Below are positions 21,291 through 50,329 of a stretch of 64,000 nucleotides of DNA, in pieces. The position numbers were made by a program, and so were the translations under genes. The stretch is from a virus: IMG/VR virus record IMGVR_UViG_3300048930_000192, positions 67,811-131,810 of that record. One strand, written 5' to 3'. A model generated the notes under the pieces. It ran no database searches. It was not told the DNA's origin and saw nothing but the letters and a program-made list of their open reading frames with translations. Every line of letters begins with the position of its first letter. The stretch's first letter is position 1.

Positions 21291-21503
21291 ATGACTGATA
21301 CTAACCAACAGCCAAATAACAGGGCATTAACTCTTGAATCTATTAATAGGTCAGGATTATACACCTATTATGACGGTTGGCTAGAATATTTTGAAGGTAC
21401 GCGGTGTACCATGCTTTTAACTGCCATTGGATCATACAGAAAGCATGGCCTCAATTCTTTTGTTGACAGATCCGGTCTACCCCAACAGGAATTCCAAATA
21501 TGA
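21291..21503 (+). CDS. YxG-GxY-DxTG mini-protein family member
   Basis: YYDGW..IGSY..VDRSGL. Confidence 0.7.
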   Translation: MTDTNQQPNNRALTLESINRSGLYTYYDGWLEYFEGTRCTMLLTAIGSYRKHGLNSFVDRSGLPQQEFQI

Positions 21504-21848
21504 CCAGATACACAAAGATAGTTGACACCATCGGCAATCCGATGTGTTTGTGTGCTTATATCGACCAGCACCAATTTTGCTTCTATCACAATACTGCATG
21601 CACCATCGGCCCATTCTATTACCCAGCGGAAAACAGGCTTAGCACAGAAATTGACATTGGCCTAGCCGAATACACAGACCTTTTGATTGAAATATTACAA
21701 TCAGCCAAGGCGGCCAAACTGTAATTTTATTCGGCATCAAATTTCTTTAACGACAGTCTTGACAGTGATTTGCCATACGTCTACAATCACATGAGTGGGG
21801 CGATTCTTGTATGATTCTCACTCACCCCCCCTTATGGAGTACCTTGAA

Positions 21849-22157
21849 ATGACAACCACTCAACGCAAGGTTTGGACTCGTGACGAAATCAAGGCTCAGA
21901 TCCTCACCGATGATCGTTGGGTCGAACGTGCCATCGTGGCCATCTACAACAAGCAAACCAGTCACGAACAGGCAATCGGATCGACCACGGTCCATAACGG
22001 TGTTGGCTTTGCTCACTGTCACGCCAATCTTGGATCCTATTATGCCCGTTGGATCCAGAGTGGCAAGATGCTCAGTGGCCATCATGTGGCCAAAGCTCGC
22101 AAGATTGCCCTTCGATACGTCGGGCAACTGGCCAAGATCGCAAACGGTGAGATCTAA
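21849..22157 (+). CDS. Conserved-looking phage hypothetical protein
   Basis: GGAG RBS; RAIVAIY.KQT..EQ..T..HNGVGF pattern. Confidence 0.75.
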   Translation: MTTTQRKVWTRDEIKAQILTDDRWVERAIVAIYNKQTSHEQAIGSTTVHNGVGFAHCHANLGSYYARWIQSGKMLSGHHVAKARKIALRYVGQLAKIANGEI

Positions 22158-22529
22158 AAGGAGATACACGATGACGGCGAATTGGGATAAGCTGTGGGCG
22201 GCTGTGGCCGTCGCGTCGTTCATGGCGATGTGGGCACTGCCCTTGATGCTAGTGTTGTTAGCATGGGCGCTGCGCATGGAGTCGATTCGCGACCAGGATC
22301 GAGATTCGCTGGTCCGCGAATCGAACGGTCTATTGCGCGGAGCAGCATATGCGCTCATGGCCCTGTTGGTACTGATAGTGTTGCACATACTTTATGGAAA
22401 CTAGATATAGCCTGCCGCACTAATATTTTAACGTTATAGCTTGACAGTGAGTTGCCGTACGTCTACAATTGATTGGCGTTCGATGCACAAATGAATTTTC
22501 CGCCTCTCACTCACAAAGGAATCAGCACC

Positions 22530-22889
22530 ATGACCATCACCACTCACAATGATCTGATCGCACGGCTCAAGGCCAACTACCCCGACGAATCGTTGGACGG
22601 TGAGTTTCTTGCGCCGGGTGTTGCTTTGGCCAACAAGCTCATTAGCTGCCATACTGTGGCCGACAACTACGAATCTTCGACCACGATCTTTGCCTTTAAT
22701 CCCGAAACCACTGATGCAGAGATTCGTGACATTGCCAAGATGTGCCACTTTGATCCAGATGGATCCAGTTGCAGGTGCAGTCACGATTGCTGTGGCCACT
22801 GGTTTCATGGCGCCATCCGAATCGTTGATAACACCAGTCACCCTGCGTTTTTTCGGTTCGCCTATATCTATGGGCACAGAAATGTCTAA
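22530..22889 (+). CDS. Hypothetical protein with C.CSHDCCGHW motif
   Basis: AAGGA RBS after promoter 22441. Confidence 0.7.
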   Translation: MTITTHNDLIARLKANYPDESLDGEFLAPGVALANKLISCHTVADNYESSTTIFAFNPETTDAEIRDIAKMCHFDPDGSSCRCSHDCCGHWFHGAIRIVDNTSHPAFFRFAYIYGHRNV

Positions 22890-23341
22890 TACAGCAACTC
22901 GCGCAATCAATCCCGAGTCAATTACACACACCGTTGGTGATGTGGGCATCTTTATGGCCACCTACGACGGGAGTGTGCGTATGCGGAACGATCATGGCTC
23001 ATATTATACCTATCTCACTCTTTATGCGGTAACTGATTTCAATATGGCCGGTTCATATCGTCCAAGTCATCGAAGCTTTGTGACCGACGACGGAGAAATC
23101 CTAAATGATTTCTAATACAGCCACTCGCGCAATCAATCCCGACTCAATTGCACGCACCATTGGTGATGTGGGCATCTTTATAGCCACATACGACGGGTAT
23201 GTGTATATGAAAACCGATCGCGGCGCATATTACAATTACATCACTCTTTATGCGGCATCTCGTTCCAGCATGGCAGGCGCATATAATCCAAAACATCGAA
23301 TCTATGTAACCGATGACGGAGAAATCCTAAATGATTTCTAA
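22882..23341 (+). CDS. Two recently duplicated mini-protein family members (22882-23115, 23105-23341)
   Basis: Near-identical tandem ORFs SNTATRAINP..ATYDG..AGxY..VTDDGEILNDF. Confidence 0.8.
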
Positions 23342-24396
23342 GAACAGGCAACAGCCAATGTTTGTTGCCAGTAACAAATCACCAACACCGTATCGTCTGA
23401 TTGATATTAGTCAGGCTCAGGCAATGGCCGGCGATACGCCGTTGCCATTGCCCGGTTGCCGAACGGCGATCAATGTTCGCAAAACTAGAACCAGAGGCTG
23501 GCTTTATCATTTACCTTCAACCGGTACTTTCTTGTTTACCACATCAAACGAACACCGTATGATTCATGGTACTACTCAAATTATCACAAAGGCACAAACG
23601 CCAAACAAATTGCCACGAGAAGAAGCTCGGTTGCCTGCATATGTTGGCGGCCATTATCGGCCGCGATGGGATGCCGACCGCGAGGTTTGACGGTGCATTA
23701 CATTTTGACGATATCACTTGACGATGACTTACCATACGTCTACAATTGATTGGCTCTCGTTGTCTTTTCAAGAAAGGTTGATACAAGCCATGAAGATCGT
23801 CAAGACGCATAATGCCAAGATGGGTATGGTATATCAACTGATTGCCATGGACCACAAGATTCCTAGTGCATGTGTATGGTCAACCAATGATGGGCAACGA
23901 GTTGCCCTTTGTCTGATGCGCAAGGATCGGCATGGTGAAATGGCAATTTCTCGCATGATGAGTTGGCGAGAAAAGATGAGTTGGATCATGTTGGTGTGTT
24001 ACGACATTGAGAACGTGGCCAAGGCGTTGGATATTAAGCCGATTAAGGTTTGATAGCCAACCATCTGAATTTTCCTCAAAAGAAAGGTATCATCACAATG
24101 ATTAGGCAATACAAGGTTTCTAGCAATGCCCCGGGCTTCGTTGAAAAGTATCTGTGGTCTAGTTTCTACGTGGCCGAATTGGTCAAGACCATCCCAGATG
24201 GCTATACGGTCGATATCGAATACGAAGATCGGCCGATCTTGTCGGGCATCATCGGCCAGATGACGTTGCCGACGATCGCAACCTTGTATCGAGCCGTTGC
24301 AGTTGATCCGACTGTGTTGCCTGTGGTGACAGACGATGAGCCGTGCCAGATCAGCGGCAACGAAGGTGCAGTTCAGGGATAATTGCTTGTAGGCAC

Positions 24397-24582
24397 ATGT
24401 GGAACCCTAAAATGGATACTAGATGGGTCAGCCGAACCTTCATTAACTACACCAGTTTCGGTGCCTCAATTACTATGATTTTTTATGATGGGCATATATC
24501 TTCTGGTAGTGTATCGCTTCGCCAAGGCGGGCAATATTATACCAATAATAAGAACTTTTCACCAACAGGAGTAGAATCATGA
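24397..24582 (+). CDS. Mini-protein family member
   Basis: FYDGHI..GGQY..FSPTGV. Confidence 0.7.
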   Translation: MWNPKMDTRWVSRTFINYTSFGASITMIFYDGHISSGSVSLRQGGQYYTNNKNFSPTGVES

Positions 24583-24938
24583 AGTATTTTGAACGGGATA
24601 GTAAATTCAATTTCGTGGACGCAAACAACGTCTTTGTAGGCTATGACTCACATCAGGATTGCTGTGAGTTGGCTAGCTGGTATTTTTCTTTCAACCCGGG
24701 TGTAATTCCAGTTAGTGATTCAGACCATATTAGTGTTGACGAACTGGATGCATATTCGTTTGACACCGGTTATTTCCGTAAAGAGTTTGAAGATGAAACT
24801 GCAATTGCGGAATTCAAGTTGGTCGCCGCAGGTCTTCCGGATATCTATTTGATTCTTCATAACACCCATAATGGTTATTATGGGCATGGCTTTAAGTGTG
24901 AAATTTCTGGCGAAGTTCTGCGTTCGGGCATTCTGTGA
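24579..24938 (+). CDS. Phage hypothetical protein (QDCCE..HNGYY type)
   Basis: HQDCCE and HNGYYGH motifs. Confidence 0.7.
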   Translation: MKYFERDSKFNFVDANNVFVGYDSHQDCCELASWYFSFNPGVIPVSDSDHISVDELDAYSFDTGYFRKEFEDETAIAEFKLVAAGLPDIYLILHNTHNGYYGHGFKCEISGEVLRSGIL

Positions 24939-25073
24939 TATGGGTGAGTGCCGAGCACGAGGTTGATGTTATAGGCAAGTGATATTTTAATGATATCACT
25001 TGACAGTGATTTGCCGTACGTCTACAATTAATCGACTGGTCTCACACGCATACTTTATATGGAGTATCACCAG

Positions 25074-25445
25074 ATGCCAATTCGCCTGTCAACTCCAACC
25101 GAATACACTCTTGACATGGGTCGGTCTGATGGGAAGTTTGCTCTCAGGGCAGACAGATGGGAGTTCGCCTTCAACTACAACGGCGAAACCATGGCTGTTC
25201 AGGTCTTGCATGATGGCATTGAGACCAGATTCAAGATGTTTCACTGGGATCTTGGCGATCGGTTTGAAGTCATCACCAAAGAAATGTTGGACCAACGGAT
25301 CCAAGACGCCATTGACCATGGCGACACTTACGATGGCAAGACGATTGAGGTCGCTGAAACTGCTGGGTATGACGCCATCATGGCAGATGTTCGCGCGCGA
25401 TGGACTGCCATTTCATATATCGTTAACCCCAGGTACGCCTATTAA
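25074..25445 (+). CDS. Hypothetical early protein
   Basis: GGAG RBS after promoter 25000. Confidence 0.7.
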   Translation: MPIRLSTPTEYTLDMGRSDGKFALRADRWEFAFNYNGETMAVQVLHDGIETRFKMFHWDLGDRFEVITKEMLDQRIQDAIDHGDTYDGKTIEVAETAGYDAIMADVRARWTAISYIVNPRYAY

Positions 25446-25459
25446 TTTGGGAGAGGTGT

Positions 25460-25651
25460 ATGATCCCGGCGAGAGAAATTGGTTACTCCTGCATGACTTA
25501 CTATATTGCGGGTAGATGGATCATGACTTTGTATTATTCCGGTGATTTTACGAGGAATGAAATCACACACACAAGTTTTTACAGGTTATTTGAAAGCGGG
25601 GAGTATTGCTACAAAAGTAAATTATTTGACTCAACTGGTGTGGGTAGATAG
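25460..25651 (+). CDS. Mini-protein family member
   Basis: YYSGDF..SGEY..FDSTGV. Confidence 0.75.
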   Translation: MIPAREIGYSCMTYYIAGRWIMTLYYSGDFTRNEITHTSFYRLFESGEYCYKSKLFDSTGVGR

Positions 25652-25736
25652 AGGCTGATTAAATTTTGCATATCGACTTGACAGTGATGTGCCGAAGTTC
25701 TATAATTTTGTACGCACTCTCTGGAGATCAAAGACG

Positions 25737-26096
25737 ATGATTAAGATCCTTTTCCTTGACGACGAAGCAGCCAGGTTTGACGTTTTGGTAAAGAATCTTG
25801 GTGATAGTGCCCAATGCCGTCATGTGAAGGACGGGTTTGAATTTCTTGAGGCTCTGTGTGATTCCAAATATGATGTTATCATGTTGGATCATGATCTTGG
25901 CCTCTGCGATTTCACTGGTGTGGATGCAGCAAAGATTCTTGCCTGCGCACCAGAGAATCTGAATGATCACCAACTGGTAGTTGTTCATAGCATGAATGTT
26001 TGCGGCGCCGACAACATGATTTCACACATGAGGAACTCGCCGCATCTTAGGATTCGCAAGATGCCTGGTGCATGGATGAAGAATTTTCTTGGATAG
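25737..26096 (+). CDS. Stand-alone receiver-like protein (cyclic-phosphate-processing receiver type)
   Basis: ILFLDDE..MLDHDLG..TG..VHSMN..GA.NM signature. Confidence 0.8.
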   Translation: MIKILFLDDEAARFDVLVKNLGDSAQCRHVKDGFEFLEALCDSKYDVIMLDHDLGLCDFTGVDAAKILACAPENLNDHQLVVVHSMNVCGADNMISHMRNSPHLRIRKMPGAWMKNFLG

Positions 26097-26311
26097 AAAG
26101 AGGTAAATAATGTCAAACGATGAAAACGTCCCAACTGCAAGCCCAAGTCGAGAAGAAACAATCACCAATCTTGTCGAGGAGATGACAGGTGAAATGCTGC
26201 AAATCAGTAGGAAACTGGAACCCCTATACACTACAAGGGATGCCTTGTATGATCAAACCGACATCAATTTGATGGACGAATATATCTGTAGCCTAGAAGA
26301 CCAAATTAGGC

Positions 26312-29300
26312 TTGTTCGTGACATTACCGTTAGGAAGATTTGCGCAATTGTTTGAAAGATACCTTAAACAATGGCTGGTTATTGATAGTGGTACTATTGT
26401 TTTCTATGATGGTGCCATTGTATTGTTAAATCTACATATGTATAGCCCAAGAGGCAGAATTCATGGTGGTAACGGTAGTAAATGGTATGACGAAACCGGA
26501 ATAGAGTATGGTACCTAAGAGGTCGGTTCATCTTCAATGGATTTGTTATGAAGAACCAGATGGCCGTTGGTTCTCAGACATATGGTACCTTGGAGTAATT
26601 GTTTTTTGTGTGCCAGCACGTGGTTTTGAAAGTGATGGTAGCTATGACCTTACCACTGCTGAATATGACGATACTGGGCTACTGATAACATGACTGACAG
26701 GATAATAGGATCATCATACATTTATTACATAGAGCCGGGTGCCAGGCGGCCTGCTAGTGGGGTTATGGGATACAATGGCACCATAACATATAGTAATCTT
26801 ACTTTTTGGAATACAGGTCAATATAATTTTGGCCGCGACGTATTTTCGCCAACAGGAATAGAATTGTGAGTACCCGCATATTATATTATTTCATTTGGTG
26901 CGACGGCCAAAGTCTATGGTACACAGGCAATATAGACCGGGGTGATGACACCCATCATGAAAGCGGTAGTTACGATTTGGGGTTCAGACATTTTGACCGA
27001 ACAGGATTAATATTATGAGAACGAGGGAGATTCAACTGGATTGCATGAGAATCATACTCGGTGAATATTTCACATACTATATTATATGGTATGATGGCGA
27101 TGTAGATTTCGGCACTTATGGGCTTGCTCATCGGGGCGTTAGTTTAAATTTAAGCCCAGTTGGAGCATATACCATTGAACACTTCGTAGATCAATCTAGG
27201 CTATGTGTTAATGCCGATGGGTCTTAATATTTTGGCAATAATAATTTTGATATATCGACTTGACTGCGACTGTCCAGATGTCTATAATTTATGACAAGGA
27301 GATCTGCGATATGGATAAGTCATACCACGAAGTTCACGATGATGCCGATTGTATCGATGATCTGCCAGAGCTGACGGCAGAAGAAGCCAATATCATCGAA
27401 CGGCAAATCGATGGCCTCTATGAAGGTCCTGTGTTCCAACGGAAACTTGAGGCCTATTATGAAAGAGTCGGAAATCAGGATAGTTGACTACCGCAAAATT
27501 GCCAAGCCACACATCAACATACTATATGGCGGTGATATCATTCATCGGTCAAGAGTATTCCTACATGCATCCGGCGAGTATACCACATTCGACTCATCGG
27601 CTGCGGTCACATCAGATGGAAGTGAATTAGAATGGCCAAAGAAACCGTTATAGAATACTACTGTATTGTCTTTGGCGGCCCGGGTAATAATACATGTGTT
27701 GCATTTTATCACGGTGAGGCCAGGTGTCTATGGGGCTACTGGTTATGGGACACCGGGGCATATTATGTCAATTACAACAAAAATCGGACGCCAGTGGTAT
27801 TTTACGATGAAACGGGGTTACAACAATATGAATAGGTCAATATTTGCTACCAATATAATTTTGTGGCATCCAAACGGATATCGAGATGTTAGATATAATG
27901 GCAGTGTCACCAACCAGAAATTCTGGCTGTGGGAAAATGGTTCATACTATGTTTACCGTCACCCGAATGACACACCCTGCTTTACTGTGTTTGATGCAAC
28001 AGGAGTCTATATATGAATAATCCCGGAAACAAGCCTGTGCGCGTAGTTTGCCCGCGAGAAATCGTTAGGTATTATGATGGCGCTCGCGACATCATAAGCT
28101 ATATTGGTACCATTAATACAACTGGCAATTTTCTGCTTTATAGTATCGGATCATATAATCTCTACGACCGACCCAACCCCAAAATTATGGTAGAAAGAAC
28201 CGGCGAATATATTGATGCGAGATATTGAAATGGATCAACAAATTACCAGGTTATTAACCGACATAAGCATAGAAAATTTCCAAACCAACACCGAAATCTA
28301 TTATACTGGGTGTATTTTAGACAGGGAAAAAATGCTTTGGACTATAGGTGATTATTATTTTCGTAAGTTGGTTATAGATGAAACCGGATATATCGACCAT
28401 GACCACTACGATCAGCGTTTTTAAGATTAGACATATATTTTCAGTTAACGGCATTAACTATGCTATTGGCACAAGTGGTAATGACAGTTGGTGGCGAGAG
28501 CGATGCGGCACACCACGGTCACTATTGCGTATATCTACTAAGGTGGATGGAATTACTTCACCAGAGTATTTTGTTGAACCGACGGCGTTAGATGATACAG
28601 ATAAAGAGGCTATTAACTTCTCCGGTTTGGTATCACACAGGGATTAAACATGGTCACCGAAATCACCAATGAAAACAAGATGCGCCCCGACTTCAAGGGT
28701 GGGCATGGCTATCGGCAACCTGGCTTCTATGACAAGCATGGTAAGAGGGTCGGCGAACGTGGTTGGATGACCTGGGACGAATCTGTTTACACCAAGCCGT
28801 TGCACAGGATCCTTGGTTACAAGAAGCGCGCCACTCTGCGAGATCACCGTGTTGGATAATCAACAACACCAAATTCGTACAGTTGGCGATAGTCGGATAG
28901 AATATCATCTTCCAGCTAATGGTTGGTTCACCGCCATCTTTAGTTATGATGGTAGAATTAGTGTTTATGATTTATATTTATCAGTTAATGATTTATATTT
29001 ATCAGTTAATGGCTCATATACTTGCTATGCCAAAGATGGGCTATCAATTGATATAGACGAAACTGGTCTAGATTTGATATAGACGAAACTGGTCTAGATT
29101 TTTCGTGGGACTAGGTAACATGCCAGAACGGTTGATAAACTCATATTATATCGAATATAAAGAAAATAATACATACACATTATGCATTGGGTATGATGGT
29201 TATATCGGTCCTAAAGCACGCACTAAGTTTATGTTTAATGATGGTAGCTACCAGTATATATTAATCGACGAGATACTTTATTGTAACGCCACAGGATTAT

Positions 29301-31226
29301 AATATGACAGACCGACGTGCATATCCAGGCTGTATTGCATACGGAGAATTTTTCTCTATTAACTATAATGGCTATTCTGGCTATCTTGATCTGGAAAAGT
29401 TCAGCAGGGTTTGGCCAGATGGTTGTTACATGTATAGGTTTGGTGAAATATTCTTTTATTGTGAGGCCACTGGCTAATGAAAAGCAACCTTCAATTGTGG
29501 TATAGGAAATCACCGGTTTTCTTTGTTCGAGAAACCTATGGCAATTACACCGAAATATCATATAATGGTGATATTAGGTCTACTGATAATAGTACAATTA
29601 CCAAACGATTTGGTAATTCCGGACAATATTCGATTAGTTTACCTAGCAAATATGAATTCTTCGAAGGTACGGGACTAAGGGTGCTTTCATAATCACACAA
29701 ATACTGGATCCCGAGAATGAATAGGACGGTAAAACTTAGACATGAACATATCAGGGTCTACTACACAGATTATAATGATGTACGTTATTATAATCGGTAT
29801 ATTAGCTATACTGGCGATTTGGAAGCCGGCACCGATACACTTACTACTTTTTGGTTTAGAGTAGATGGCTCATATTGCTGGTATACAACGGATAGTATGT
29901 ATTACTATAACTCCACTGGAGAAGGTAATCAATGAATACAATCCGACTCATTCACCATTACCATTTGACTATTGAAATAGAGTATCCCGATAAGTCATTT
30001 ATTACCATTGAATATGATGGCAACATAAGCACCGGTAAAAAATAAAGGAACGCGTGAGCCGACGGCTGCTAGCTTTACTCGCCAACGGCGATTATTCTGA
30101 CCTAGACGGCAATTTCTTTACAGATACTGGATATTAATCATGAAAAGAATAGTTGATGAATGGGATATTGATATACACCATAGTATTAATGTGCATATTA
30201 CAATTGGTTATGAGGGTGATATTGTAATGAGTGAACGATGGCGAAGGAAATTTGCACTAACAGGCAAAGGCTACGACCCAGACACCCTAGCAGACACTCT
30301 AGCCGAAGATGGCTCGTACTTTTGCATCGGTAGTTATTACTTTGATCCAACAGGATATTAATCATGAATAACGACTATAGGATTATTGAGTATCGGATAA
30401 TTAAAAGAAAATTGGGTGATAAAGAGTTCAAATTATATTATGATGGTTCTTATATAGACAACTTAGCAGGGCCAACAGTTATCAGTATTACCGGTGAATA
30501 TAGAGTGTTCTTTGACCCAGGCTGGGATGCAAAGAACAGGATCATTTTTGATGAAACGGGGTTACAACGTGAATAGTTATACCAGAGATGTGAGATCAGA
30601 TAACATTTTTGCTAACTATGGTACCATATGTTGGTCGATAAATTATATAGGAAGTTATTATAATGACTCAGTTGGTGCTTCCGCTGTCGGTGTAAACGGA
30701 ATGTATTTTGTATATTCTGTGCCAGGATTTGGCACCGCGCCGCGCACAATGGTAAACGAAACCGGAATTATCAAAAATGGATAGGGAACTTAATGGTGGG
30801 TTTATTTGTCATACAGTCGGCGACAAAGAATACATTATACATTATATCGGCTCATTTGGCCACAACAAAGTAGGACCAGCATGGTTCTTACGAACTGGTT
30901 CATATAAAGCATACAAATTTGATAATTGGCCAGATTGCCCATGTTATTCAATTGATGATACTGGTATTTTACTGGTATTTGGTATTAATAATGTCTCGCC
31001 GTTGAAGATATAATAGGTATTAATAATGAAACAAAAAATAACTTATACTTATACTCATATGTATCGTGGACGACAGTTTTACATGAGTTATAGTGGTGAA
31101 TTAAGTAAAAACTATACCAGGTTTAGAGCGAGTGGTGATTATATAGGATATAATCACGATAATTGGAATAATTGGGCAATTGACAACACAGGTATTCTTA
31201 CTGGTTCTTTGCCAATCAAAATATGA
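26312..31226 (+). CDS. Main array of about 21 coupled mini-protein genes (26312, 26508, 26690, 26866, 27015, 27459, 27632, 27828, 28013, 28212, 28849, 29120, 29304, 29477, 29717, 29932 frameshifted, 30140, 30364, 30569, 30777, 31026), with a few unrelated ORFs interspersed
   Basis: Each 50-80 aa with YxG, GxY and mostly DxTG near the C-terminus; frequent ATGA/TAATG overlaps. Confidence 0.85.
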
Positions 31227-31327
31227 TACCGCATCGCAATCATCGACTTGACAGTGACTTGCCACAAGTCTACAATTTGTTCGAGCGATCATCGATCTTT
31301 AATAACCGAATGAGTTGATAGTATAAT

Positions 31328-32643: not shown

Positions 32644-32693
32644 TATATTAATCCTTTCGTATCAAAATCACATTAGTTATTTATGGAGTTTAT

Positions 32694-34526: not shown

Positions 34527-34535
34527 CTTTAGATT

Positions 34536-37295: not shown

Positions 37296-37709
37296 ATGAC
37301 CGATAATCGCACACCATTCTATTACTTGCACACCAACGGCAGTTTGATATACAAGCCTCATGCGGACGTTGCCGACCTCGAGGAAAGCGACTTCGTGGTC
37401 GAGTACTGGGCTTGGAACGAAAACCGAGAAACACTCTGGAGTATTTTGATCGAAGGCCTTGGGTTGTCCGCCGCTCCAGAAATAACTGCATCTCGGGTAG
37501 CAGAAATCGCACCTCATTGGCATTGCGATGCTCGCGATCTAGAACAATATATGGCTCGAATGGACGTAAATCCAGTTAGAGCCAAAGGTGTTGTGTTGTT
37601 CCTTCAAGATGTTCTGAAAATCGACCCGCGGGAATGGATGGATTGGTTTGCTTCTACTCCCGTGGGTGGTGAGCCAAATTACGAAACTATGCCAAAGGCA
37701 AAGAAATGA
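37296..37709 (+). CDS. Hypothetical protein (paralog of 38713)
   Basis: YYLHTNG..YW..ILIEGLGL..P.Y.TMP. Confidence 0.75.
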   Translation: MTDNRTPFYYLHTNGSLIYKPHADVADLEESDFVVEYWAWNENRETLWSILIEGLGLSAAPEITASRVAEIAPHWHCDARDLEQYMARMDVNPVRAKGVVLFLQDVLKIDPREWMDWFASTPVGGEPNYETMPKAKK

Positions 37710-38595: not shown

Positions 38596-38712
38596 TTACC
38601 CGTGCCATCGAGTTGATCGCCGATGGCAGGATTTATATTGATAGTGGCATATATTTGTAGCCACTGATGCTTATGCAACTCACCAACACATTAACTTGTC
38701 TTGGTGAGTTTT

Positions 38713-39138
38713 ATGGTCAATGAATTCCATTATCTGTATATAGATGGCCAGATATTATCCGGAACATGCGGTACCGTAAATATGGATAAAGATCCCAATA
38801 TAATGGGATATTGGAAAGTAAATGTATGTGATGCCATATCAATGTACGATATGATTATCGAAGCTCTTGGTTTAGCAAACATAGACCAGATTTATACTAC
38901 CATAACAGATATTAAGGTATACGCATATGACTGGGATATAGTCTTAGATGGTGAAAGTCTTTTGCAATATATGTTGGAAACTAAACCAACCTACTTTCTG
39001 CGCCGAGGAGCAAACAGGTTCATAAAATATGTTCTAAATGTAGACCCAGACGAATTTTGGAATTGGGTTAGTAATCAAGGCGAAACACCGGATTATGCAA
39101 CAATGCCGGTTTATAAGGGAGTAGTTATAAATGCGTAG
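38713..39138 (+). CDS. Hypothetical protein (paralog of 37296)
   Basis: HYLYIDG..YW..MIIEALGL..PDYATMP. Confidence 0.7.
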   Translation: MVNEFHYLYIDGQILSGTCGTVNMDKDPNIMGYWKVNVCDAISMYDMIIEALGLANIDQIYTTITDIKVYAYDWDIVLDGESLLQYMLETKPTYFLRRGANRFIKYVLNVDPDEFWNWVSNQGETPDYATMPVYKGVVINA

Positions 39139-42286: not shown

Positions 42287-42781
42287 ATGTCCAACGATTC
42301 GACCGCCGTTACTGATGCCGGTTCTGAAAACAAGGCTCCGCGAGTGCTTTATGGTACTCGTGTTGACGCCGCATTTGCCCTTGAACTCGGGCGCCTGCGT
42401 GGCGAGGACTATACTGATCCCAGCCAGGATCGACCGAAGTATATCACTCGCCCTGAACTGATCCGCATTGGTATCGAGAATGGCACCAACTTCTATGTGG
42501 ATTACATCAACGATCATCCTGGTTCGCGTGAGGCGTACATGACCGATGAAATGCTTGAGCCTGACCAGTCGAAGCGCACCAAGTATACTCGATTTGGCAT
42601 CACTCTTGGTGTTCCTGGCAAGGCAACTCAGCGCACCACAAATCGCAATCCTGCTGGCCCTCGCGCAAGTGATGGTACGCCGCAGTATAAGATGGATATT
42701 TTCTTTACTGCGCTCGACAACCTTATTCGTGACATGAAGCCCGAAGAATTCAATGAAACCTTTGCGCGTACTGCCCTCTGA
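42287..42781 (+). CDS. Early protein, paralog family A copy 3
   Basis: YGTRVDAAFALEL..RPKYITRPEL.RI..ENG..YTRFGITLGVP..DGTPQY. Confidence 0.85.
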   Translation: MSNDSTAVTDAGSENKAPRVLYGTRVDAAFALELGRLRGEDYTDPSQDRPKYITRPELIRIGIENGTNFYVDYINDHPGSREAYMTDEMLEPDQSKRTKYTRFGITLGVPGKATQRTTNRNPAGPRASDGTPQYKMDIFFTALDNLIRDMKPEEFNETFARTAL

Positions 42782-43154
42782 AACAAAAATTAAAACTGAA
42801 TATGCCAATACGGCGTGATTAACTTTGCGCCGTATTATTTCCCGAATTTAACTTTAACGGAGAATATATGAGTCACGGTCAACGTGCGGCATATAAGAGC
42901 AATCACCAACGCGAAGTTTGGAGTCGCAGAGCAGACTCTAGGTTTACTGGTTGCAGAAATGGCCGATATGTGAAAACTGAAACCCATAGGCAAGAGCGCC
43001 GAGAAGCCAGAATTAATCTCAAAAAGCACGAAGATTGATCCTCGCAGTCGGCAACTGGTAACAATAAATTGAGTCGTTTATCTTGACTTTGATTAGCCGT
43101 AAGTATAGAATTATTCGTGCGATAGATTCTAAACGCCTTTAAAGGATTCATTAA

Positions 43155-43448
43155 ATGAGTCGGAATGTGCAACCCGTTATTTCGCCTGTTGAGATCATGG
43201 ATCGCAGGATCGGAGATCGTGAAATTTCCGACAGTCTCGTGGCTGCTCGAATCAAGCCGAGCGAGGTGATTGTTTCTCGCGTTGACCAAGCTGGAAAGTA
43301 TGTGATTGTTGAAACCAGTCACACTTGTTTGGATCGTGCTCAAATGGCAGAATTGTGTAAGTGTGTTCGGTTTGCTCAGTTGGAAACTACATATTCTATT
43401 GATGGTACTATTTGGTTCTTCTTTAAGACCTCTAACAGCGCAAGGTAA
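43155..43448 (+). CDS. Hypothetical early protein
   Basis: AAGGA RBS after promoter 43083. Confidence 0.7.
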   Translation: MSRNVQPVISPVEIMDRRIGDREISDSLVAARIKPSEVIVSRVDQAGKYVIVETSHTCLDRAQMAELCKCVRFAQLETTYSIDGTIWFFFKTSNSAR

Positions 43449-44278
43449 TAAAAAATGAGTGACAATTATCGCAGAGCCGGGCGATGTTATATCGAGAGAT
43501 ATAACACCATTCGCAAATCATATCAGGGTATTATTACTTACGTTGGTGGTGCGAAAGTAAAGAGGCAAAATAAGGATTTGCCAACATCACTTGGGATCAA
43601 TGGGGTGCCGTTTTCTATGGTAAACAAATGCATCGCGATGGTGCGATCACCTCTTTGTATCATGCAAGGCGCCACGGTCTAAAACGGAATGTTAATACCC
43701 GTCATATTCTTAGAACCTCTGAAATTGTAACAAATAGAATTACTACCGTACGTGCCTATAATGGCACAGAACGACATCATTACGAAGCCCTGAAAAAGAG
43801 AAGGGGCAAACCTTCTAAGATCGGTAATGATGGGCGATATTTCATTCCCAAGATAGTAATTATGCCTGATGGCATTTCTCGACCGGTCAGATCAAATACA
43901 GAAAGGACAGACAGAACATGGCTGCAAACACATTGGTAACGGTAGATAACTATCCATCACAGAAGTATGTTTTGCTGGATTCAAATGCAAATGGCACCGT
44001 GCGCATCAATGGTCTTGCCTCGCACGAAGAAGCAATCATCCTCATCTTCAAAGCCGGTGATGGATATTATGGCTGCACAGCCGACGATATCGTTTATGTT
44101 GGTGCGCCCATTGATGACGATGGTGGTGATGATCTCGAATTTGTTGGTGTTGGAATTCTAGAGTCTCTTGTCGAATGACAAAAGTTTGTGTCAAAACTTG
44201 ACGCGAGTTTGCCGTCAGTGTATAATTTCAAGTCGTTTTGTTCACGCAATATCTGTGGATTGAAAAGGAGTATCAAGA

Positions 44279-45160
44279 ATGCCGGGTCGCCGAAGTAACG
44301 AAGATCGTGCAAAGATTATTGCCAGTCTCAAGAAGGATATGTACTACCTTGACGGCTTCGACGTGATTTATGACGATAGTGGCAAGAAAGAGAAGCGGTA
44401 TCTCGATCCTGATACCATGAAGCCACGCGATCCGTATGATGGTGTTGCAGCCATTCAGACTTCGCCGCTTCGTGCGAAGAAGGATATCTGCAAGGATTGC
44501 CCGAACAAGCCCGGGCTACTTGAGGGAATGGTTTATCTGTGGGGGCTGGATCTTGTGCTCGACCCTCGAAACAACCTGACTGTGTATCGTCACCCCGAAA
44601 CTCGTCTTGTGTATAACGGCTACACAGATATCCCCGCTTTCATTGATCCTGGCTCTAGCGAGCGATTCTTCCAGCAAGACCGTGGCGGCATCATCAATCG
44701 CACCAATGGTCCTGCGTGCGTGTTCCCCATCAACCCCGAAGATAACCTGTATATCGTCGATGGTCGCCCACTTGCGCAGGGCGGGCATCTGGATCTTGCT
44801 CGTAAGATTGTAATGGAGCCCGAGAAGCTTACCCTCGACGAGATTTATTCCATCGTCGATGAGGAATCAAAGCGAATTGCGATCGAACGGTTCGGTCTTG
44901 AAGAATTCATCAAAGTGAGTAATGCCAAGGTCCTTGATGAATATGAAAATGTGATTGAGGGAACCCATGAAGCCTTGTTCGAGCTGTATGGCAACAAAGA
45001 GGGTACCATCAAGTTTTCGTTCTTCTGTGGTGTTTGCCGTTCGACTGGCCGCGTTTACTTCATTCGAGTGCCGAATCCCGACGACAATCGAACCATTGAA
45101 GCAGCCAAGAAGTTCATGACTGGCGGGATGGAACCCAACAAGTGCGTTGGTGCAAGTTAA
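44279..45160 (+). CDS. DUF6745-like protein
   Basis: E..RIAIERFG.E.FI..VLD..VCRSTGRVYFIRVP..T.EAA C-terminal pattern. Confidence 0.65.
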   Translation: MPGRRSNEDRAKIIASLKKDMYYLDGFDVIYDDSGKKEKRYLDPDTMKPRDPYDGVAAIQTSPLRAKKDICKDCPNKPGLLEGMVYLWGLDLVLDPRNNLTVYRHPETRLVYNGYTDIPAFIDPGSSERFFQQDRGGIINRTNGPACVFPINPEDNLYIVDGRPLAQGGHLDLARKIVMEPEKLTLDEIYSIVDEESKRIAIERFGLEEFIKVSNAKVLDEYENVIEGTHEALFELYGNKEGTIKFSFFCGVCRSTGRVYFIRVPNPDDNRTIEAAKKFMTGGMEPNKCVGAS

Positions 45161-45233
45161 TAAATAAGTAAGATTGTTTCTTGCTTATATGCCTCTGTGT
45201 ACGATAGTGTGAGAATAAAAGGAGTTTTAGATT

Positions 45234-45692
45234 ATGGCTAAGAATACTGTTGCTGTTGCCGATCCCGTGAAGGTCTTTAACCGAGTGAAGAACTCTGTAA
45301 AGAACCCGAAGCCCGATCCAATCATGCTTTCTAACGTGAATACTCCCGGTGAGTTTGTTCGCCAGGGCGACATTTACGTTACCCTTCTTGAGGGCAAGCC
45401 GACTGGTACTTGCAAGAAGGTTCCTGCTGCAAAGCTGACCAGCAAGGAATTCCAGCTTGCGCCTGGCAACAGCCGTGGCTCTCGCCACATGCTCGATAAT
45501 GTCGATGCTGTGGAGATCTACGATCGTGGCACTCGTGAAGATGGCATCGAAGCTGGTTATGCAATCAAGGTGAACGAGGCTTGCAGCATTGTTCACCCCG
45601 AGCATGGTACTGTCAATCTTGGCAAGGACATGTGGGTTGCTGTTACTTACCAGCTCACCTGGGATCAAGTTGCTCGCCGCGTTCAGGACTAA
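45234..45692 (+). CDS. RQGD..HPEH protein (typical DUF6745 neighbour)
   Basis: VRQGDIY..LAPG..GSRH..VHPEHG. Confidence 0.7.
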   Translation: MAKNTVAVADPVKVFNRVKNSVKNPKPDPIMLSNVNTPGEFVRQGDIYVTLLEGKPTGTCKKVPAAKLTSKEFQLAPGNSRGSRHMLDNVDAVEIYDRGTREDGIEAGYAIKVNEACSIVHPEHGTVNLGKDMWVAVTYQLTWDQVARRVQD

Positions 45693-45766
45693 TACTGAAC
45701 ACCAATGATTCTGTTTGACAATTTGATTATTGTTTCCGCACACTGAAAAGTTGTGCGGAAATTTTT

Positions 45767-46099
45767 ATGACGACAGGAAGAAACACTACATTCCGTGCAG
45801 ATCGTATTCTTTACGATTCTATTAGAATGCCAAATACCGTTTTTTATGATGGTACTATATCTTATGTGGCACGAAAGCACAATAAGATATATATGTACGC
45901 AACCAAGATATATATGTACGCAACCGGCTCATATGAATGCCCGTTTGGTAAGATATATATGTACGCAACCAAGATATATATGTACGCAACCGGCTCATAT
46001 GAATGCCCGTTTGGTAAGATATATATGTACGCAACCGGCTCATATGAATGCCCGTTTGGTGCATTTATAGATCGAACTGGATGGAACCACCTCACCTGA
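45767..46099 (+). CDS. Mini-protein family member with internal tandem expansion
   Basis: FYDGTI..ATGSY..IDRTGW. Confidence 0.75.
   Translation: MTTGRNTTFRADRILYDSIRMPNTVFYDGTISYVARKHNKIYMYATKIYMYATGSYECPFGKIYMYATKIYMYATGSYECPFGKIYMYATGSYECPFGAFIDRTGWNHLT
45884..46060. repeat. In-frame compound tandem repeat AABAABAB (A=21 bp, B=24 bp)
   Basis: A=AAGATATATATGTACGCAACC, B=GGCTCATATGAATGCCCGTTTGGT, exact copies. Confidence 0.95.
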
Positions 46100-46126
46100 G
46101 GTGTGCCGACAACGAGGAATGATGTA

Positions 46127-46516
46127 ATGGCAAAGAAGAAAGAACAAATAAAATATATTGATACCTATGCGGCTATCACCGACCTAATGCAAGTGGTGTT
46201 TAATGCCGAGAGGCCAGGCCCAGGATATTCATACTATCGGTGGTATGATATTAACACGAAAAGTGCAATATCAATATTTCGGTCTTTTAATCCATTTACT
46301 AAAGAAAAGCATACAATAAAGGTTCTGGAAAAGTTCATTAAAATGACGGAATGTGCAATATCTATTGAGGCTGGTGTTAATGGATATTCACTAAAGATGA
46401 TAAAGGATGGTAATACTACGTTACTTAGTTTGGAGAAAACTCTGCCGTATGCAGTTTGTATTGGAATTCTAAACTATTATGGGCATCAAAGGCCAAAATA
46501 TGAAGTGCCGAGATAA
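46127..46516 (+). CDS. Possible phage ABA-sandwich-like protein
   Basis: FNPFT..KVLEK..TLPYAVCIGIL pattern. Confidence 0.45.
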   Translation: MAKKKEQIKYIDTYAAITDLMQVVFNAERPGPGYSYYRWYDINTKSAISIFRSFNPFTKEKHTIKVLEKFIKMTECAISIEAGVNGYSLKMIKDGNTTLLSLEKTLPYAVCIGILNYYGHQRPKYEVPR

Positions 46517-46754
46517 AAGGATAGTTAACAGAAGCGATATTTTTTATGGTAATAAAGATATAGCCATTAAAACTGTTCTGTATGACGGTTCAATTTGGAC
46601 GGGACCTTATAACATAAGTAATCGCAGAATTATAAAGAAAGAAAAATCGGCTCGTTTTGAAAATAACGGAGAATATAACTTTTATGTTCCCGTAGATAAG
46701 TATAATAATACCCTAAATATGTTCGATCCAACCGGAATCATTTCGCAACTCTAA
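46500..46754 (+). CDS. Mini-protein family member
   Basis: LYDGSI..NGEY..FDPTGI. Confidence 0.75.
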   Translation: MKCRDKRIVNRSDIFYGNKDIAIKTVLYDGSIWTGPYNISNRRIIKKEKSARFENNGEYNFYVPVDKYNNTLNMFDPTGIISQL

Positions 46755-46755
46755 T

Positions 46756-46829
46756 GCCCGAATACCAAAATGGCTTAATGGCTCTGGCTGCAACCCAGAT
46801 GTGTCTTGGTTCAAGTCCAAGTTCGGGCT
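46756..46829 (+). tRNA. tRNA-Cys (GCA)
   Basis: GCCCGAA/TTCGGGC, U73; TCTGG-CTGCAAC-CCAGA. Confidence 0.9.
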
Positions 46830-46834
46830 TTGAT

Positions 46835-47044
46835 ATGGAAAATAAACACAAACTTGGTCAATATTGTATCTTTATTCAAGGTTGCGACAATGTGTTTATT
46901 GCATCTATTCATTATTCTGGCGGCATTACTGTTGGTCCATATATTACAGATTATGGGCACCATACTACTGATTCCGATGGTTCATATCGAATTGGACCCA
47001 AAAATTCATACATCGATGAAACTGGTTGTTTGATAATAACATGA
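46835..47044 (+). CDS. Mini-protein family member
   Basis: HYSGGI..DGSY..IDETGC. Confidence 0.75.
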   Translation: MENKHKLGQYCIFIQGCDNVFIASIHYSGGITVGPYITDYGHHTTDSDGSYRIGPKNSYIDETGCLIIT

Positions 47045-47732
47045 AAATATTTAACGCTAAAAATTACGGTTCTATTCCTCATTTGCCTGGCAGTCACTTG
47101 ACTGTTGGCGACTATACTCTTAATGCTGGTCAAGCCAAGATTCTAACGGTAAAGACCAGAGACAAGCACGATACCGTATTTGTACATGAAAAGTTGGATG
47201 GCTCTAATGTTGGTATCTATCGTGAAGGCGATATATTTCATCCAGTTAGTAGATCTGGTAATATGTGTGTAAATTCGCCACTTGAGCAACACCGCATATT
47301 TTACGAATGGGTAAAAACAACTGCGGCTTATTCTTGTTTCTAGAAGATGGTGAACGACTGGTTGGCGAATGGCTTGCACAAGCTCATGGTACTAAATATG
47401 CAATAAATAATAATCCATTTGTCGCATTTGATATTATGAGAGGCTCAACCAGAGCCTTACAATCGGAATTGGATTCAAGAATACCGTCAGAAATACCTCG
47501 ATCCAAACTTCTTCATTCTGGTCAGACAATTTCAGTAGACCAGGCAGATAAACTTCTGGGCGAATACGGCCATCATGGTGCGACAGAGACAGCAGAAGGC
47601 GTGGTATATCGTGTTGAACGTAACGGTGGTGTTGACTTTTTGGGCAAATATGTTAGAAGTGGTGTAGTGCCTGGTAAGTATTTGAGACTGGATCCACCGA
47701 TATGGAACTGGCATCCAAGAAAACTAAATTGA
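47041..47732 (+). CDS. ATP-dependent RNA ligase family protein, split by a -1 frameshift near 47315
   Basis: EKLDGSN (motif I) in 47026-47343; GEW, AFDI, EGVV in 47307-47732. Confidence 0.8.
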
Positions 47733-47750
47733 TTGTGTTAGCGGGGCACT

Positions 47751-48743
47751 TTACGTCTTTTTTATATTTATTTCGTATTTTGCACACCATTTCCTAACAG
47801 CATTATCAGATACACCGTACTTTCTACCCAAAGCAAGAAATGACATTTTTTCTATTTCATCTTTTAGAATTTCTTTAGATGGCCTTGTCACTTTTCTAGA
47901 AGATTCTGCACAACACTCGGTAGAACAAAATTTACCCTTACATTTTTTAATTTTGCAAAATTCGCAACAATTTAATTCTTTCTTTGGTTTATCAAATTTA
48001 GCGAACTTATCCCAATTGGCAGAGGACGCCGTCCTAGAAACGGTGTGTTCGGGGTTCGACTCCCCGAGTTCGCATTTGTTCTTTTTAGATTTGGATTTAC
48101 AAAAAGTTTCTGTTTGGCTATGACAATTTGGACAAATTAATCTTAAATTTTCCAATCTATTATCGTATGATACGCCATTTATGTGATCCATTTGTAAAGT
48201 CAATTTATTATTATTCCACGATGATATACCACAAATATCACATTTATATTCGTGCTTAACTTGCAAAAATCTTTCTTTTACCATTGATTTACATTTTCCG
48301 TGTATCGCAAATATTTCTTCGTTGGGTGTTCTATCTTTCTTCGGGCCAAACTTTGCACCTTTGCTCCATCCCTGACCAGTAAAATGATCGATATTTATAT
48401 TATTTGTTTCTATATAATTTATCAATTTTGATTTGAAAGTCCAAGGATAGTCATTTTTGCCGCCCAATAAAATATATACTCTCCTAATAGACTTACTATT
48501 TTTTATTGCCTCTAATATGAATTCCGGTTCTATTGTATCTATGTCAATTATATTACCGTGCTTTCCGCGCATATGGCTTACGTCTATTTTATGCTTATTA
48601 ATGTAAGCATCTAAGTCTCTATACCAAGCGCCACTATATGGGTCATTTTTATTCAATTTTCGAAAAATTTCAGCCTTAGTCTTACTTTCTTTAATAATCA
48701 AATTTAGTTCTTCATTAAAATCAACAAAGTATCCGGGTTTCAT
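47751..48743 (-). CDS. HNH homing endonuclease with C-terminal HTH
   Basis: C..CG..W..LQMDHING..DNRLENLRLICPNCHSQT; LGRKYGVSDNAVRKW; GGAGG RBS before MKPGY. Confidence 0.92.
   Translation of the reverse strand: MKPGYFVDFNEELNLIIKESKTKAEIFRKLNKNDPYSGAWYRDLDAYINKHKIDVSHMRGKHGNIIDIDTIEPEFILEAIKNSKSIRRVYILLGGKNDYPWTFKSKLINYIETNNINIDHFTGQGWSKGAKFGPKKDRTPNEEIFAIHGKCKSMVKERFLQVKHEYKCDICGISSWNNNKLTLQMDHINGVSYDNRLENLRLICPNCHSQTETFCKSKSKKNKCELGESNPEHTVSRTASSANWDKFAKFDKPKKELNCCEFCKIKKCKGKFCSTECCAESSRKVTRPSKEILKDEIEKMSFLALGRKYGVSDNAVRKWCAKYEINIKKT
48001..48074 (+). tRNA. tRNA-Leu (UAG) embedded antisense in the HNH ORF
   Basis: GCGAACT/AGTTCGC; GCCGT-CCTAGAA-ACGGT; CGGGG-TTCGACT-CCCCG. Confidence 0.85.
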
Positions 48744-48806
48744 CTGAACCTCCATTCTATGCTACTATTTATCTTTTAATGAATTTGGGGTTCAGATATA
48801 TTTTCT

Positions 48807-48835
48807 GGTGATAGGTTCAAGTCCCTTCACCCGCA
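48807..48835 (+). pseudogene. 3' tRNA fragment (Leu-like end)
   Basis: GGTTCAAGTCCCTTCACCCGCA. Confidence 0.55.
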
Positions 48836-48842
48836 TTTTAAT

Positions 48843-50329
48843 ATGAATAGAACCATAATATCAAATGCTATTGCCAGATCGAATGACAAGGGAGCAATTA
48901 TCCTGTGGATCGAATATTCGGGTAAGATTGACGGGAACAGAGTATGGGACCCAAACATTTTAAAATACCTCGATTTCCATGAGAATGGGTCGTATGATAT
49001 AGATTCTGTGGTGTTTGTTGATCCAACGGGAGTAGAGGATAGATGAATAATCTAATAGAAAAAAGAACTATTAATTGGGCGAGTATTCATATACGATACA
49101 AGTTGAATTATAATTTGTTCATATATTACAATGGTCTTATTACTAATTTCCCAAAATATCCAGATTTTAAAATTGACGGATCATATGAGTTATACAATTC
49201 TTGTAGCCCCATTGGAATAATACAATATGACGAAACCGGATTATAATAACCCCAAAATAGATATTGGATATTATTTAATGTCTAGATACGACAATGACGG
49301 GTATGTGAAGATGTATTTTTACTACAACGGTGAATTAATATTAACCCCTTGGCAAACAAATTTTGGCGAAGACGGTGGATATTATTTCGACGGCCTTCAA
49401 TACTTTGAGTTCGATGAAACAGGGATACCAATATATGAGTAAATCTAAACCACATAAGTCATTTTTAATGACTCCCATTAAAAATAAAATGCGATCTAGA
49501 ATTTATTATGATGGATGTATACTTGTTGAAACACGAGAAAAATCTGTATTGGATATCTATAGATTTAAGGAGTATGGTGTGAGTGGCGAATATGGTGGTT
49601 GGAAAACGCCATGGGTAACTGAAACCGGGTTAACAGGGTTCTAGCACCATTATATGGGATTCAATATATATGAGTAAATCTAGAAAATGTAAAGAATGGA
49701 TTAATATAACTGTAAATAAACATATAACTAGAATTTACTATGATGGATCTCATTGGGGGTTTCTGTACGTCGCCACGGGCGATCCACTAGAGTGTTATTT
49801 TGATAACGATGGGAGATATTGGATCATGGGAAAATCCATTGATGAGACTGGGCTATGAAAACTAATGGCATAATAGGATGGCATTCAATATTTAGATCAA
49901 AGAGGGTTACCAAATGAATTTTAGGTCACTTACATCGATTTCAATTTACAATTCATGCGGATCTTTCCTGCACATTTACTATGACGGAAGTATATCGGCC
50001 CGTGGTTGCAGTGGTATTTTTTATGAGGATGGTGGATATCTATCCAATAATTATTATTTTAATGAGACAGGTCTATGAAAACAAATACTAAACTTACTGA
50101 CTGGATCATTATAACTTCTTTTGGTACATATAAAGTCATCCTCGAATACAACGGCAGTATACTGCACTTTTTTACTAAACTGGCATCAAAAGAAGAAAAA
50201 CTAAATTACAATGGTATAAAAATAGCGGAATCAGATGGTGAATATTATATGGTAAATTGCTCAGTCGATTCAACCGGAATTATAGACCAGACCTATAGAG
50301 GTCGATTAAAATTCGATGACTTGACTTGA
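48843..50329 (+). CDS. Second array of 7 mini-protein genes (48843, 49043, 49227, 49435, 49670, 49914, 50075)
   Basis: All with YxG..GxY..(D/T/N)xTG. Confidence 0.85.

Follow-up and report, generated by a model that had tools for sequence, protein, structure and literature searches.

Introduction

Lineage-specific expansions are already known in large phages. For Bacillus phage G, a zinc-ribbon expansion of ~35 copies is described and termed unprecedented (Iyer et al. 2021, PMC7824862), and for phage CBB 22 open reading frames (ORFs) are reported to be paralogues. A second relevant precedent is the promoter-early stem-loop (PeSL) cassette, by which genes are shuffled in those regions of T4-type phages that have been termed hyperplastic (Arbiol et al. 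2010, PMC2839356; Comeau et al. 2014, PMC4122927). Here we describe a new family of mini-protein genes in a 64,000-nt stretch of viral DNA (the window), which covers bases 67,811–131,810 of the linear 131,810-bp IMG/VR record IMGVR_UViG_3300048930_000192. Judged by the PHROG matches of the window's proteins, the source is an uncultured T4-like myovirus. The family comprises 33–34 loci, all on the + strand, at 21.3–31.2 kb and 45.8–50.3 kb, and includes two tandem arrays. CheckV puts the record at 72% completeness, so further copies may exist.

The resemblance to phage G lies in a similar number of small one-domain paralogues within one large phage and in a function that is guessed. The differences are several. 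The present phage has an estimated genome of ~180 kb, compared to 500 kb for the jumbo phage G; its mini-proteins contain 0–3 Cys, lack a metal-binding pattern and are predicted to be all-beta; and their arrays are coupled operons with a junction repeat. As in the PeSL system, whole genes are inserted, deleted and replaced between close relatives in a T4-type accessory region (seen in four sequencing runs). Unlike that system, there is no consensus promoter at 27289–31247, and the joints lie at coding junctions rather than at a promoter or stem-loop. The recombining repeat consists of a paralogue's coding end, a ribosome site and the next start, and the genes shuffled are paralogues of one family, not unrelated ORFans. 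What is new, then, is the family itself, its all-beta prediction and a junction that seems to serve as protein motif, ribosome site and recombination point at once. A first-pass annotation of this DNA had recognized the paralogues; it overlooked both the role that their C-terminal motif seems to play at the nucleotide level and the way in which genes come and go as cassettes.

Clusters of very small early genes without names are common to large phages, and a single family of ~34 copies is an extreme case. Our tentative reading, to which we would give a little under an even chance, is that the family may supply co-expressed small binders, each holding a target of its own, a protein of the host or of a competitor, in the course of takeover or counter-defence.

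A family of diverged mini-protein paralogues

The shared Y-x-G, G-x-Y and D-x-T-G motifs are visible directly in the ORF lists. A loose pattern (aromatic-aromatic-x-G, then G/S-x-aromatic, then D/N/S-x-T/S/D-G) matched 21 of 1,625 stop-to-stop ORFs of at least 35 aa in the whole record: 16 on the + strand at 21.3–50.1 kb, one on the minus strand at 43.7 kb and four in large ORFs beyond the window. Starting from 14 seeds, an iterated profile collected 20 ORFs at E ≤ 1e-3; reversed and shuffled ORFs reached a best E of 0.04–0.13 in the final round and 0.012 across all rounds. We then curated an alignment of 32 members (A1). Its rows are 15–31% identical to the first, the Y and G of Y-x-G and the G of G-x-Y are invariant, and a further Y, T and G are each present in at least 90% of rows.

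When each member was scored with a profile from which it had been left out, 28 of the 32 gave E ≤ 5e-4 (at least 16.6 bits), above every control (best reversed ORF, 11.8 bits; best shuffled ORF, 9.5 bits). The other four (26312, 27411, 29304 and 49435; 9.2–12.5 bits) are borderline and were placed mainly by position, strand and size. Two loci outside the training set were also found, namely 45767–46099 (E 1.3e-5) and the N-terminal half of a frameshifted copy at 29933–30137 (E 3.7e-4), after which the best remaining ORF had an E of 0.11. A separate profile search of the record returned 33 matches at E ≤ 0.01, every one on the + strand. These data confirm that the phage carries a family of diverged mini-protein paralogues, as the first-pass annotation had proposed. 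Its count of about 36 is close to our 34, to which a possible outlying pair may be added. The four ORFs it had listed as missing from the ORF track (26690, 26866, 29304 and 49914) encode 59, 50, 57 and 54 aa and would fall under a 60-aa cut-off.

The loci are listed below in window coordinates, with leave-one-out E values unless stated otherwise.

21291–21503, +, solitary member, 70 aa (E 4.7e-5)
22879–23341, +, possible distant branch, two tandem 78-aa paralogues, uncounted (hhalign 64.6%, N-terminal half)
24394–24582, +, solitary member, 62 aa, ORF opens at 24343 (E 6.7e-9)
25460–25651, +, solitary member, 63 aa (E 4e-10)
26312–26518, +, borderline member, 68 aa, placed by position (E 0.015, control level)
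26508–26693, +, member, 61 aa (E 1.3e-6)
26690–26869, +, member, 59 aa (E 2e-8)
26866–27018, +, shortest member, 50 aa (E 2.2e-5)
27015–27227, +, member, 70 aa, degenerate terminal motif (E 2.6e-4)
27411–27653, +, borderline member, 80 aa (E 0.0091)
27632–27835, +, member, 67 aa (E 2.2e-7)
27828–28016, +, member, 62 aa (E 1.2e-8)
28013–28228, +, member, 71 aa (E 1.1e-6)
28212–28424, +, member, 70 aa (E 1.4e-7)
28813–29082, +, member, 89 aa, 21-nt internal tandem repeat (E 1.5e-7)
29105–29302, +, member, 65 aa (E 2.2e-8)
29304–29477, +, borderline member, 57 aa, placed by motifs and position only (E 0.1)
29477–29692, +, member, 71 aa, missing as a unit from contigs of two runs (E 2.3e-6)
29717–29935, +, member, 72 aa (E 4.2e-8)
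29933–30137, +, frameshifted member, N-terminal half stops after a run of seven A, C-terminal half in another frame (N-terminal half, E 3.7e-4)
30140–30361, +, member, 73 aa, missing as a unit from one run's contig (E 1.8e-6)
30364–30576, +, member, 70 aa, first AlphaFold model (E 8.6e-7)
30551–30784, +, member, 77 aa, start uncertain (E 4.8e-4)
30777–31013, +, member, 78 aa (E 3.8e-7)
31026–31226, +, member, 66 aa, last of the long array (E 2.6e-4)
45767–46099, +, member, 110 aa, enlarged through a perfect tandem repeat of 66 nt within the gene (E 1.3e-5, outside the training set)
46479–46754, +, member, 91 aa (E 5.4e-11)
46835–47044, +, member, 69 aa, begins after tRNA-Cys 46756–46829 (E 2.9e-8)
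48843–49046, +, member, 67 aa, first of the second array (E 6.7e-9)
49043–49246, +, member, 67 aa (E 1.4e-6)
49227–49442, +, member, 71 aa (E 8.5e-8)
49435–49644, +, borderline member, 69 aa (E 0.013)
49670–49858, +, member, 62 aa (E 6e-8)
49914–50078, +, member, 54 aa, second AlphaFold model (E 1.1e-7)
50075–50329, +, member, 84 aa, last of the second array (E 1.8e-6)

The 34 loci sum to 7,101 nt, or 5.4% of the record, and encode proteins of 50–110 aa (median 69), the closest two of which are 41% identical. Tyr makes up 9.4% of their residues, compared to 4.8% in ten long genes, and their isoelectric points (pI) range from 4.1 to 9.6. Within the long array, the ORFs at 28378–28647 and 28650–28859 are not members. 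A candidate at 43.7–43.9 kb, raised in the first-pass annotation, was rejected on its E of 0.11 and an hhalign probability of 3.5%. The tandem paralogues at 22879–23341 are 69% alike and form a 226-nt repeat that is 82% identical at the DNA level. They contain the motifs Y-D-G, G-x-Y-Y and T-D-D-G-E and align to the family with an hhalign probability of 64.6% over the N-terminal half only (HMM E 0.16 and 1.4). We consider them a possible distant branch and left them out of the count.

Predicted fold

AlphaFold2, run on A1 for the member at 30364–30576, returned six short strands and no helix (pLDDT 74.1, pTM 0.51). A second member (49914–50078, 54-row alignment) likewise gave six strands and no helix (pLDDT 70.1, pTM 0.37). 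The fold is thus predicted, with moderate confidence, to be a beta meander of hairpins, in line with the small beta scaffold that had been suggested from the sequence. In the first model, Y-x-G lies at the turn that follows strand 2, G-x-Y at the one leading into strand 5, and strand 6 is capped by D-x-T-G. Conserved residues would therefore mark the turns and variable ones fill the strands and loops; strand and loop residues, loop lengths and charge all vary freely among members.

Foldseek searches of the PDB and BFVD gave no match at E ≤ 0.001. In exhaustive structure alignment, the best scores were Z 6.0 (the CPAP G-box) and 5.9 (the phi92 spike) for the first model and 4.9 for the second, all under the noise level of ~8 stated by the aligner. 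Lower neighbours included MORN4 (Z 4.3), junctophilin (Z 4.0), Rhs cores (Z 4.3, 4.0 and, in the second search, 3.3) and OspA-type sheets. At the level of fold, the predicted hairpin run, turn Gly and flanking aromatics are reminiscent of MORN repeats, the CPAP/TCP10 G-box and the OspA central sheet. The family differs from all three in showing no sequence or profile match, no internal repeat and no Z of 8 or above, and in consisting of stand-alone proteins of 50–90 aa rather than repeats within a chain.

Such neighbours raise the question of whether the family could be a degenerate offshoot of a known hairpin or catalytic family, that is, of MORN, of Rhs/YD or of the N-terminal half of SET. 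With the A1 profile, the five best PDB rows were SET domains (E 0.02–0.13). None was left among the 12 rows obtained with the 54-sequence profile, none appeared in the top 50 rows of the one fold search or the other, and PF00856 had no match at E ≤ 10 in the whole record or in the 32 members. SET domains carry a C-terminal cofactor-binding half with its own motif. The mini-proteins end 0–17 residues past D-x-T-G, so that this half is absent. We reject the SET link on the loss of the rows with the larger profile, the negative PF00856 search and the lack of SET among the fold rows. For MORN, a Pandoravirus MORN protein appeared in the viral fold search with a probability of 0.95 (E of 0.57), and MORN4 and two Rhs cores are among the structural neighbours (Z 4.3, 4.3 and 4.0). 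However, none of the 32 members matched the Pfam MORN, Rhs/YD or SET models at E ≤ 10. MORN proteins carry several tandem copies of a unit of ~23 residues; here, comparison of the N- and C-terminal halves by hhalign (probability 0.35%) detected no internal repeat. Descent from any of the three families would thus be surprising in the extreme.

Distribution of the family

No family in Pfam (E ≤ 10), PHROGs (E ≤ 0.1) or NCBIfam (E ≤ 0.1) was matched by more than one of the 32 members, which bears out the earlier remark that the family is not one of those recognized. When 1.84 billion representative proteins were scanned in full with HMMER, 31 matched at E ≤ 0.001, and not one reached E ≤ 1e-10. 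Sorted by reading the sequences, 27 of these are short: 11 are the window's own proteins and 16 are variants of 54–84 aa on other contigs. The remaining four are long Ig-like or VCBS-like repeat proteins with a match to a D-G-S-Y-type strand, which we take to be spurious. A word-indexed protein search gave 12 proteins without names, on contigs of at most 24.6 kb besides this record, and ten orthologue clusters of one to five members were likewise nameless.

Tblastn with two of the 34 members against a phage collection returned nothing at E ≤ 1, and the family profile at E ≤ 0.1 matched none of the four closest cultured T4-like genomes and nothing in a 14.5-kb contig of the same phage. No related locus was found among metagenome and viral contigs with a single member or an orthologue alignment, a search from which near-window records may have been excluded. 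Two loci from species genomes proved to be a lipase-like gene of Clostridia metagenome-assembled genomes (profile E > 0.7) and were discarded, and the ESM Atlas gave no usable match. The literature that we found holds no description of the family; those searches were aimed at arrays of this kind and not at the motif, so unpublished status is unproven. With 33–34 loci here, none in the four closest cultured relatives and 27 short hits in 1.84 billion proteins, the family represents a lineage-specific expansion of one undescribed small family in a T4-like myovirus. As far as sequence databases go, it appears confined to a phage lineage seen only in metagenomes. The alignment, profile and phage-database searches proposed with the first-pass annotation therefore yielded a real profile family with no characterized match.

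Promoters, coupling and the C-terminal motif

The string TTGAC-N18-TAYAAT occurs 21 times in the window, compared to 0.26 expected, with 17 copies on the + strand. Two of these promoters precede mini-gene arrays.

25678–25706, +, sigma-70-like promoter, 12/12 consensus, of a unit made up of a cREC-domain gene, an 81-aa gene and five family genes
25689–26096, +, cREC_REC-domain gene, first in that unit (E 3.7e-12)
27260–27288, +, sigma-70-like promoter heading the long array, next consensus copy at 31248

No consensus promoter lies within 27289–31247, and the next copy, at 31248, stands just before tRNA-Met. The ~20 cistrons of the long array consequently appear to form one unit. Host RNA polymerase would be expected to transcribe the arrays early, each as a single long message. 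The T4-type late motif TATAAATA occurs four times in the window (7.2 expected) and not within the arrays, a weak indication given that the phage's own late promoter is not known.

The whole promoter set spans 14882–62146, and CC occupies positions 15–16, counted from the first T, in 20 of the 21 copies (the exception is 14882). Its four minus-strand copies fall in the block at 14–18 kb, where two of them (16925 and 17923) are identical over 29 nt.

Of the 29 in-array starts, 20 overlap the gene before them and 27 are no more than 25 nt away from it, in keeping with the translational coupling proposed earlier. Ribosomes could then move from cistron to cistron, a passage made plausible by the overlap of stops and starts. 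Most starts are preceded, a few bases upstream, by A-C-N-G-G-A, which encodes the Thr-Gly at the end of D-x-T-G in the gene before. Of 30 members, 21 use GGA or GGG as the terminal Gly codon, compared to 56 of 176 other Gly codons of the family (Fisher P = 1.5e-4) and 38 of 205 in ten long genes (P = 3e-8 versus the terminal Gly). Where the GG stands 6–16 nt before the next start, the share is 13 of 14; among the other 16 members, eight have GGA or GGG and seven have GGT. Written as A-GGA or A-GGG at this distance, the terminal Thr-Gly codons thus seem to act at the same time as a Shine-Dalgarno site for the cistron that follows. Thr-Gly persists even in genes that have no close downstream neighbour, which suggests that it is needed by the protein as well. 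Coupled cistrons and ribosome sites of this sort would cause all paralogues to be made together.

Translational coupling is typical of the subunits of a complex. One might suppose, then, that the paralogues bind each other or themselves, assembling edge to edge into a larger beta structure (a sheet, a helix or a propeller) that would serve as a structural element or a scaffold. The predicted single-layer meander of six strands would have two free edges, and its best structural neighbours, none of them significant, are the CPAP G-box sheet and strands from the trimeric spikes of phages and secretion systems (Z 6.0, 5.9 and 4.9). On the other hand, the promoters upstream are of early type and the T4-type late motif is absent from the arrays, whole genes are dispensable in relatives (see below), the pI values are spread from 4.1 to 9.6 and every Z lies below 8. 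On balance, we regard self-assembly as improbable.

Gene turnover among relatives

Parts of the long array are present in sixteen sequencing runs that come from nine studies, each with no more than 0.22 of the sampled words. We compared contigs from four runs of four studies, three labelled wastewater metagenome and one unlabelled. Most of the relatives' pieces are 90–99% identical to the window. A joint of 29477 to 29681 (203 nt; two runs, two studies) drops the gene at 29477–29692. A second, of 30128 to 30353 (224 nt, one contig), drops the gene at 30140–30361, and 16 letters fit both of its sides. They correspond to a string that is present twice in the window and extends across the terminal Gly codon and the stop to the start of the following gene.

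30129–30144, +, 16-nt junction repeat, copy 1: gene end, ribosome site and next start; fits both sides of the joint
30353–30368, +, 16-nt junction repeat, copy 2, 224 nt past copy 1

Other differences involve gain or exchange. In two runs, 609 nt at 27305–27915 are swapped for 643 other letters, and one run has 233 extra letters at 28230, where the loose ends open with a start codon. Two runs lack a 21-nt repeat unit of the gene at 28813–29082. Tandem repeats within or at the ends of family genes include 66 nt × 2.3 (45883–46060), 21 nt × 2.3 (28963–29011) and 26 nt × 2.1 (29048–29101); the 66-nt repeat is perfect, and the last duplicates the end of a gene perfectly. The copy broken after a run of seven A is a further trace of slippage. 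Identity between adjacent genes slightly exceeds that of all pairs (26.0% versus 23.5%; permutation P = 2e-4), in line with a tandem origin. These comparisons show that the arrays evolve by whole-gene loss, insertion and replacement at junction repeats, together with slippage of internal repeats. The comparison of repertoires across relatives that had been proposed as a check thus revealed single genes lost or replaced at junctions.

Substitutions were sampled from the differences displayed in the alignments, a non-random 40 of 386. Thirty-two of the 40 lie in three family genes, with 22 non-synonymous and 10 synonymous, and among these 32 the motif Gly and Tyr codons change only synonymously. 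The pattern points to a constrained scaffold and a loosely constrained remainder. The first-pass annotation had proposed diversifying selection. This goes beyond the data, as a ratio of 22:10 fits weak constraint as well as positive selection.

The same observations invite a largely non-adaptive explanation, in which junction repeats ease unequal recombination and the copies drift, with few or no specific targets. Gene-sized insertions and deletions at junction repeats, the frameshifted copy, the perfect internal duplications, the excess of non-synonymous differences in the displayed sample and the four members that barely match the profile would all be expected on this account. Harder to square with it is the retention of an open frame of at least 50 codons in 33 of 34 copies. 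The scaffold residues are kept in paralogues and orthologues alike, their Gly codons changing synonymously, and paralogues have diverged to 41% identity or less without decay. In addition, 7.1 kb has been retained despite limited capsid space. We consider a mainly non-adaptive origin unlikely.

Proposed function

Returning to the idea of co-expressed binders, we envisage a mechanism in which the invariant Gly and Tyr fix the turns, strand faces, loop lengths and net charge are free to vary, and each binder made from the early message targets another host or competitor protein. A more specific version may be considered, in which the family would constitute a germline repertoire: more than 30 single-layer beta binders built on one Gly/Tyr turn scaffold, each for a different host immune or competitor protein, with the dual-coding junction selected as a recombination site that allows cassette swaps while sparing the expression of the other genes. 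In this full form the proposal is doubtful, its chances being perhaps one in a handful or slightly better.

Several points weigh against the binder interpretation. The second array (48843–50329) has no consensus promoter directly upstream and ends at the promoter at 50326, and the ground for early timing is promoter likeness. Among the 16 runs that hold the array, none is on record as RNA, and the sole run labelled RNA-Seq was flagged as probably DNA. The ribosome-site reading is a codon-bias argument, and several start codons were chosen by us, which affects the 6–16 nt classes. One copy (29933–30137) is frameshifted after a run of seven A. The 22:10 share of non-synonymous differences, from a non-random sample, fits relaxed constraint as well as adaptation. 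Finally, the fold is of moderate confidence (pTM 0.51 and 0.37), with no significant structural match.

If the mini-proteins are indeed binders, they would offer a natural minimal beta scaffold with many variants, and probes for the targets of defence and takeover. The junction, for its part, provides a testable account of how arrays stay expressed while genes come and go, in that the same dozen bases appear to carry a conserved protein motif, the next gene's ribosome site and a recombination point.

Genomic setting

The T4-like assignment reflects PHROG matches that include a gp43 DNA polymerase split in two genes, a clamp loader and a DNA methyltransferase. Among phages in culture, DNA polymerase identity is highest, at 44–46%, to cyanophages such as S-PM2 and Pelagibacter phage Mosig. 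At the DNA level, blastn and megablast against 50,697 phage records gave no match. Other PHROG matches are to HNH and other endonucleases, a metallophosphoesterase, an HD phosphohydrolase, ribose-phosphate pyrophosphokinase (PRPP synthetase) and nicotinamide phosphoribosyltransferase (NAMPT). The last two belong to the set on which the phage type rests.

The mini-protein genes occupy a + strand accessory region, with the replication genes on one side and the tRNA and NAD-salvage genes on the other. ARAGORN finds ten tRNA genes in this region, nine of which are confirmed by Rfam. In the neighbourhood of the arrays are RNA ligase pieces, the cREC domain (linked to RNA-repair conflict systems), phosphoesterases, tRNAs, NAD-salvage genes and a homing endonuclease. 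RNA repair, tRNAs and NAD salvage are used by phages against tRNA-cutting and NAD-depleting defences. Together with the early-type promoter set, this accessory region is the contextual support for a possible role as inhibitors of host defence proteins, the example given in the first-pass annotation.

It is also conceivable that the binders are aimed at other phages or bacterial toxins, acting in superinfection exclusion or as immunity-like proteins against polymorphic toxins. Immunity gene arrays consist of small, tandem, fast-changing, co-expressed genes, a description that the mini-genes resemble, and the arrays here adjoin a homing endonuclease and RNA-repair genes. Yet no immunity family of NCBIfam or Pfam is matched, and no toxin gene is adjacent. 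We judge this variant rather unlikely, less so than self-assembly.

Several other features of the window were noted. The two polymerase genes abut on the minus strand (735–2138 and 2138–3418). RNA ligase is distributed over two overlapping + strand ORFs (47026–47343 and 47307–47732), which could indicate either a frameshift or a real split. At 14001–18000 the G+C content is 51–54%, compared to 32–48% elsewhere, and ORFs overlap on both strands, such that the block may be foreign DNA; a PHROG search of one of its ORFs (17079–17951) gave no match. A further pair of paralogues, at 37296–37709 and 38701–39138 with a tRNA-Lys between them, encodes 137 and 145 aa (28% identity, E 6e-14) and belongs to no Pfam or PHROG family. 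A + strand tRNA gene at 48001–48074 (tagged Leu by ARAGORN; 45.2 bits in Rfam) lies antisense within the ORF for a 334-aa HNH endonuclease on the minus strand (47751–48755), in the part of that ORF that matches the HNH PHROG. Finally, a string resembling a tRNA 3' end can be seen by eye at ~48817–48838, just 5' of the second array.

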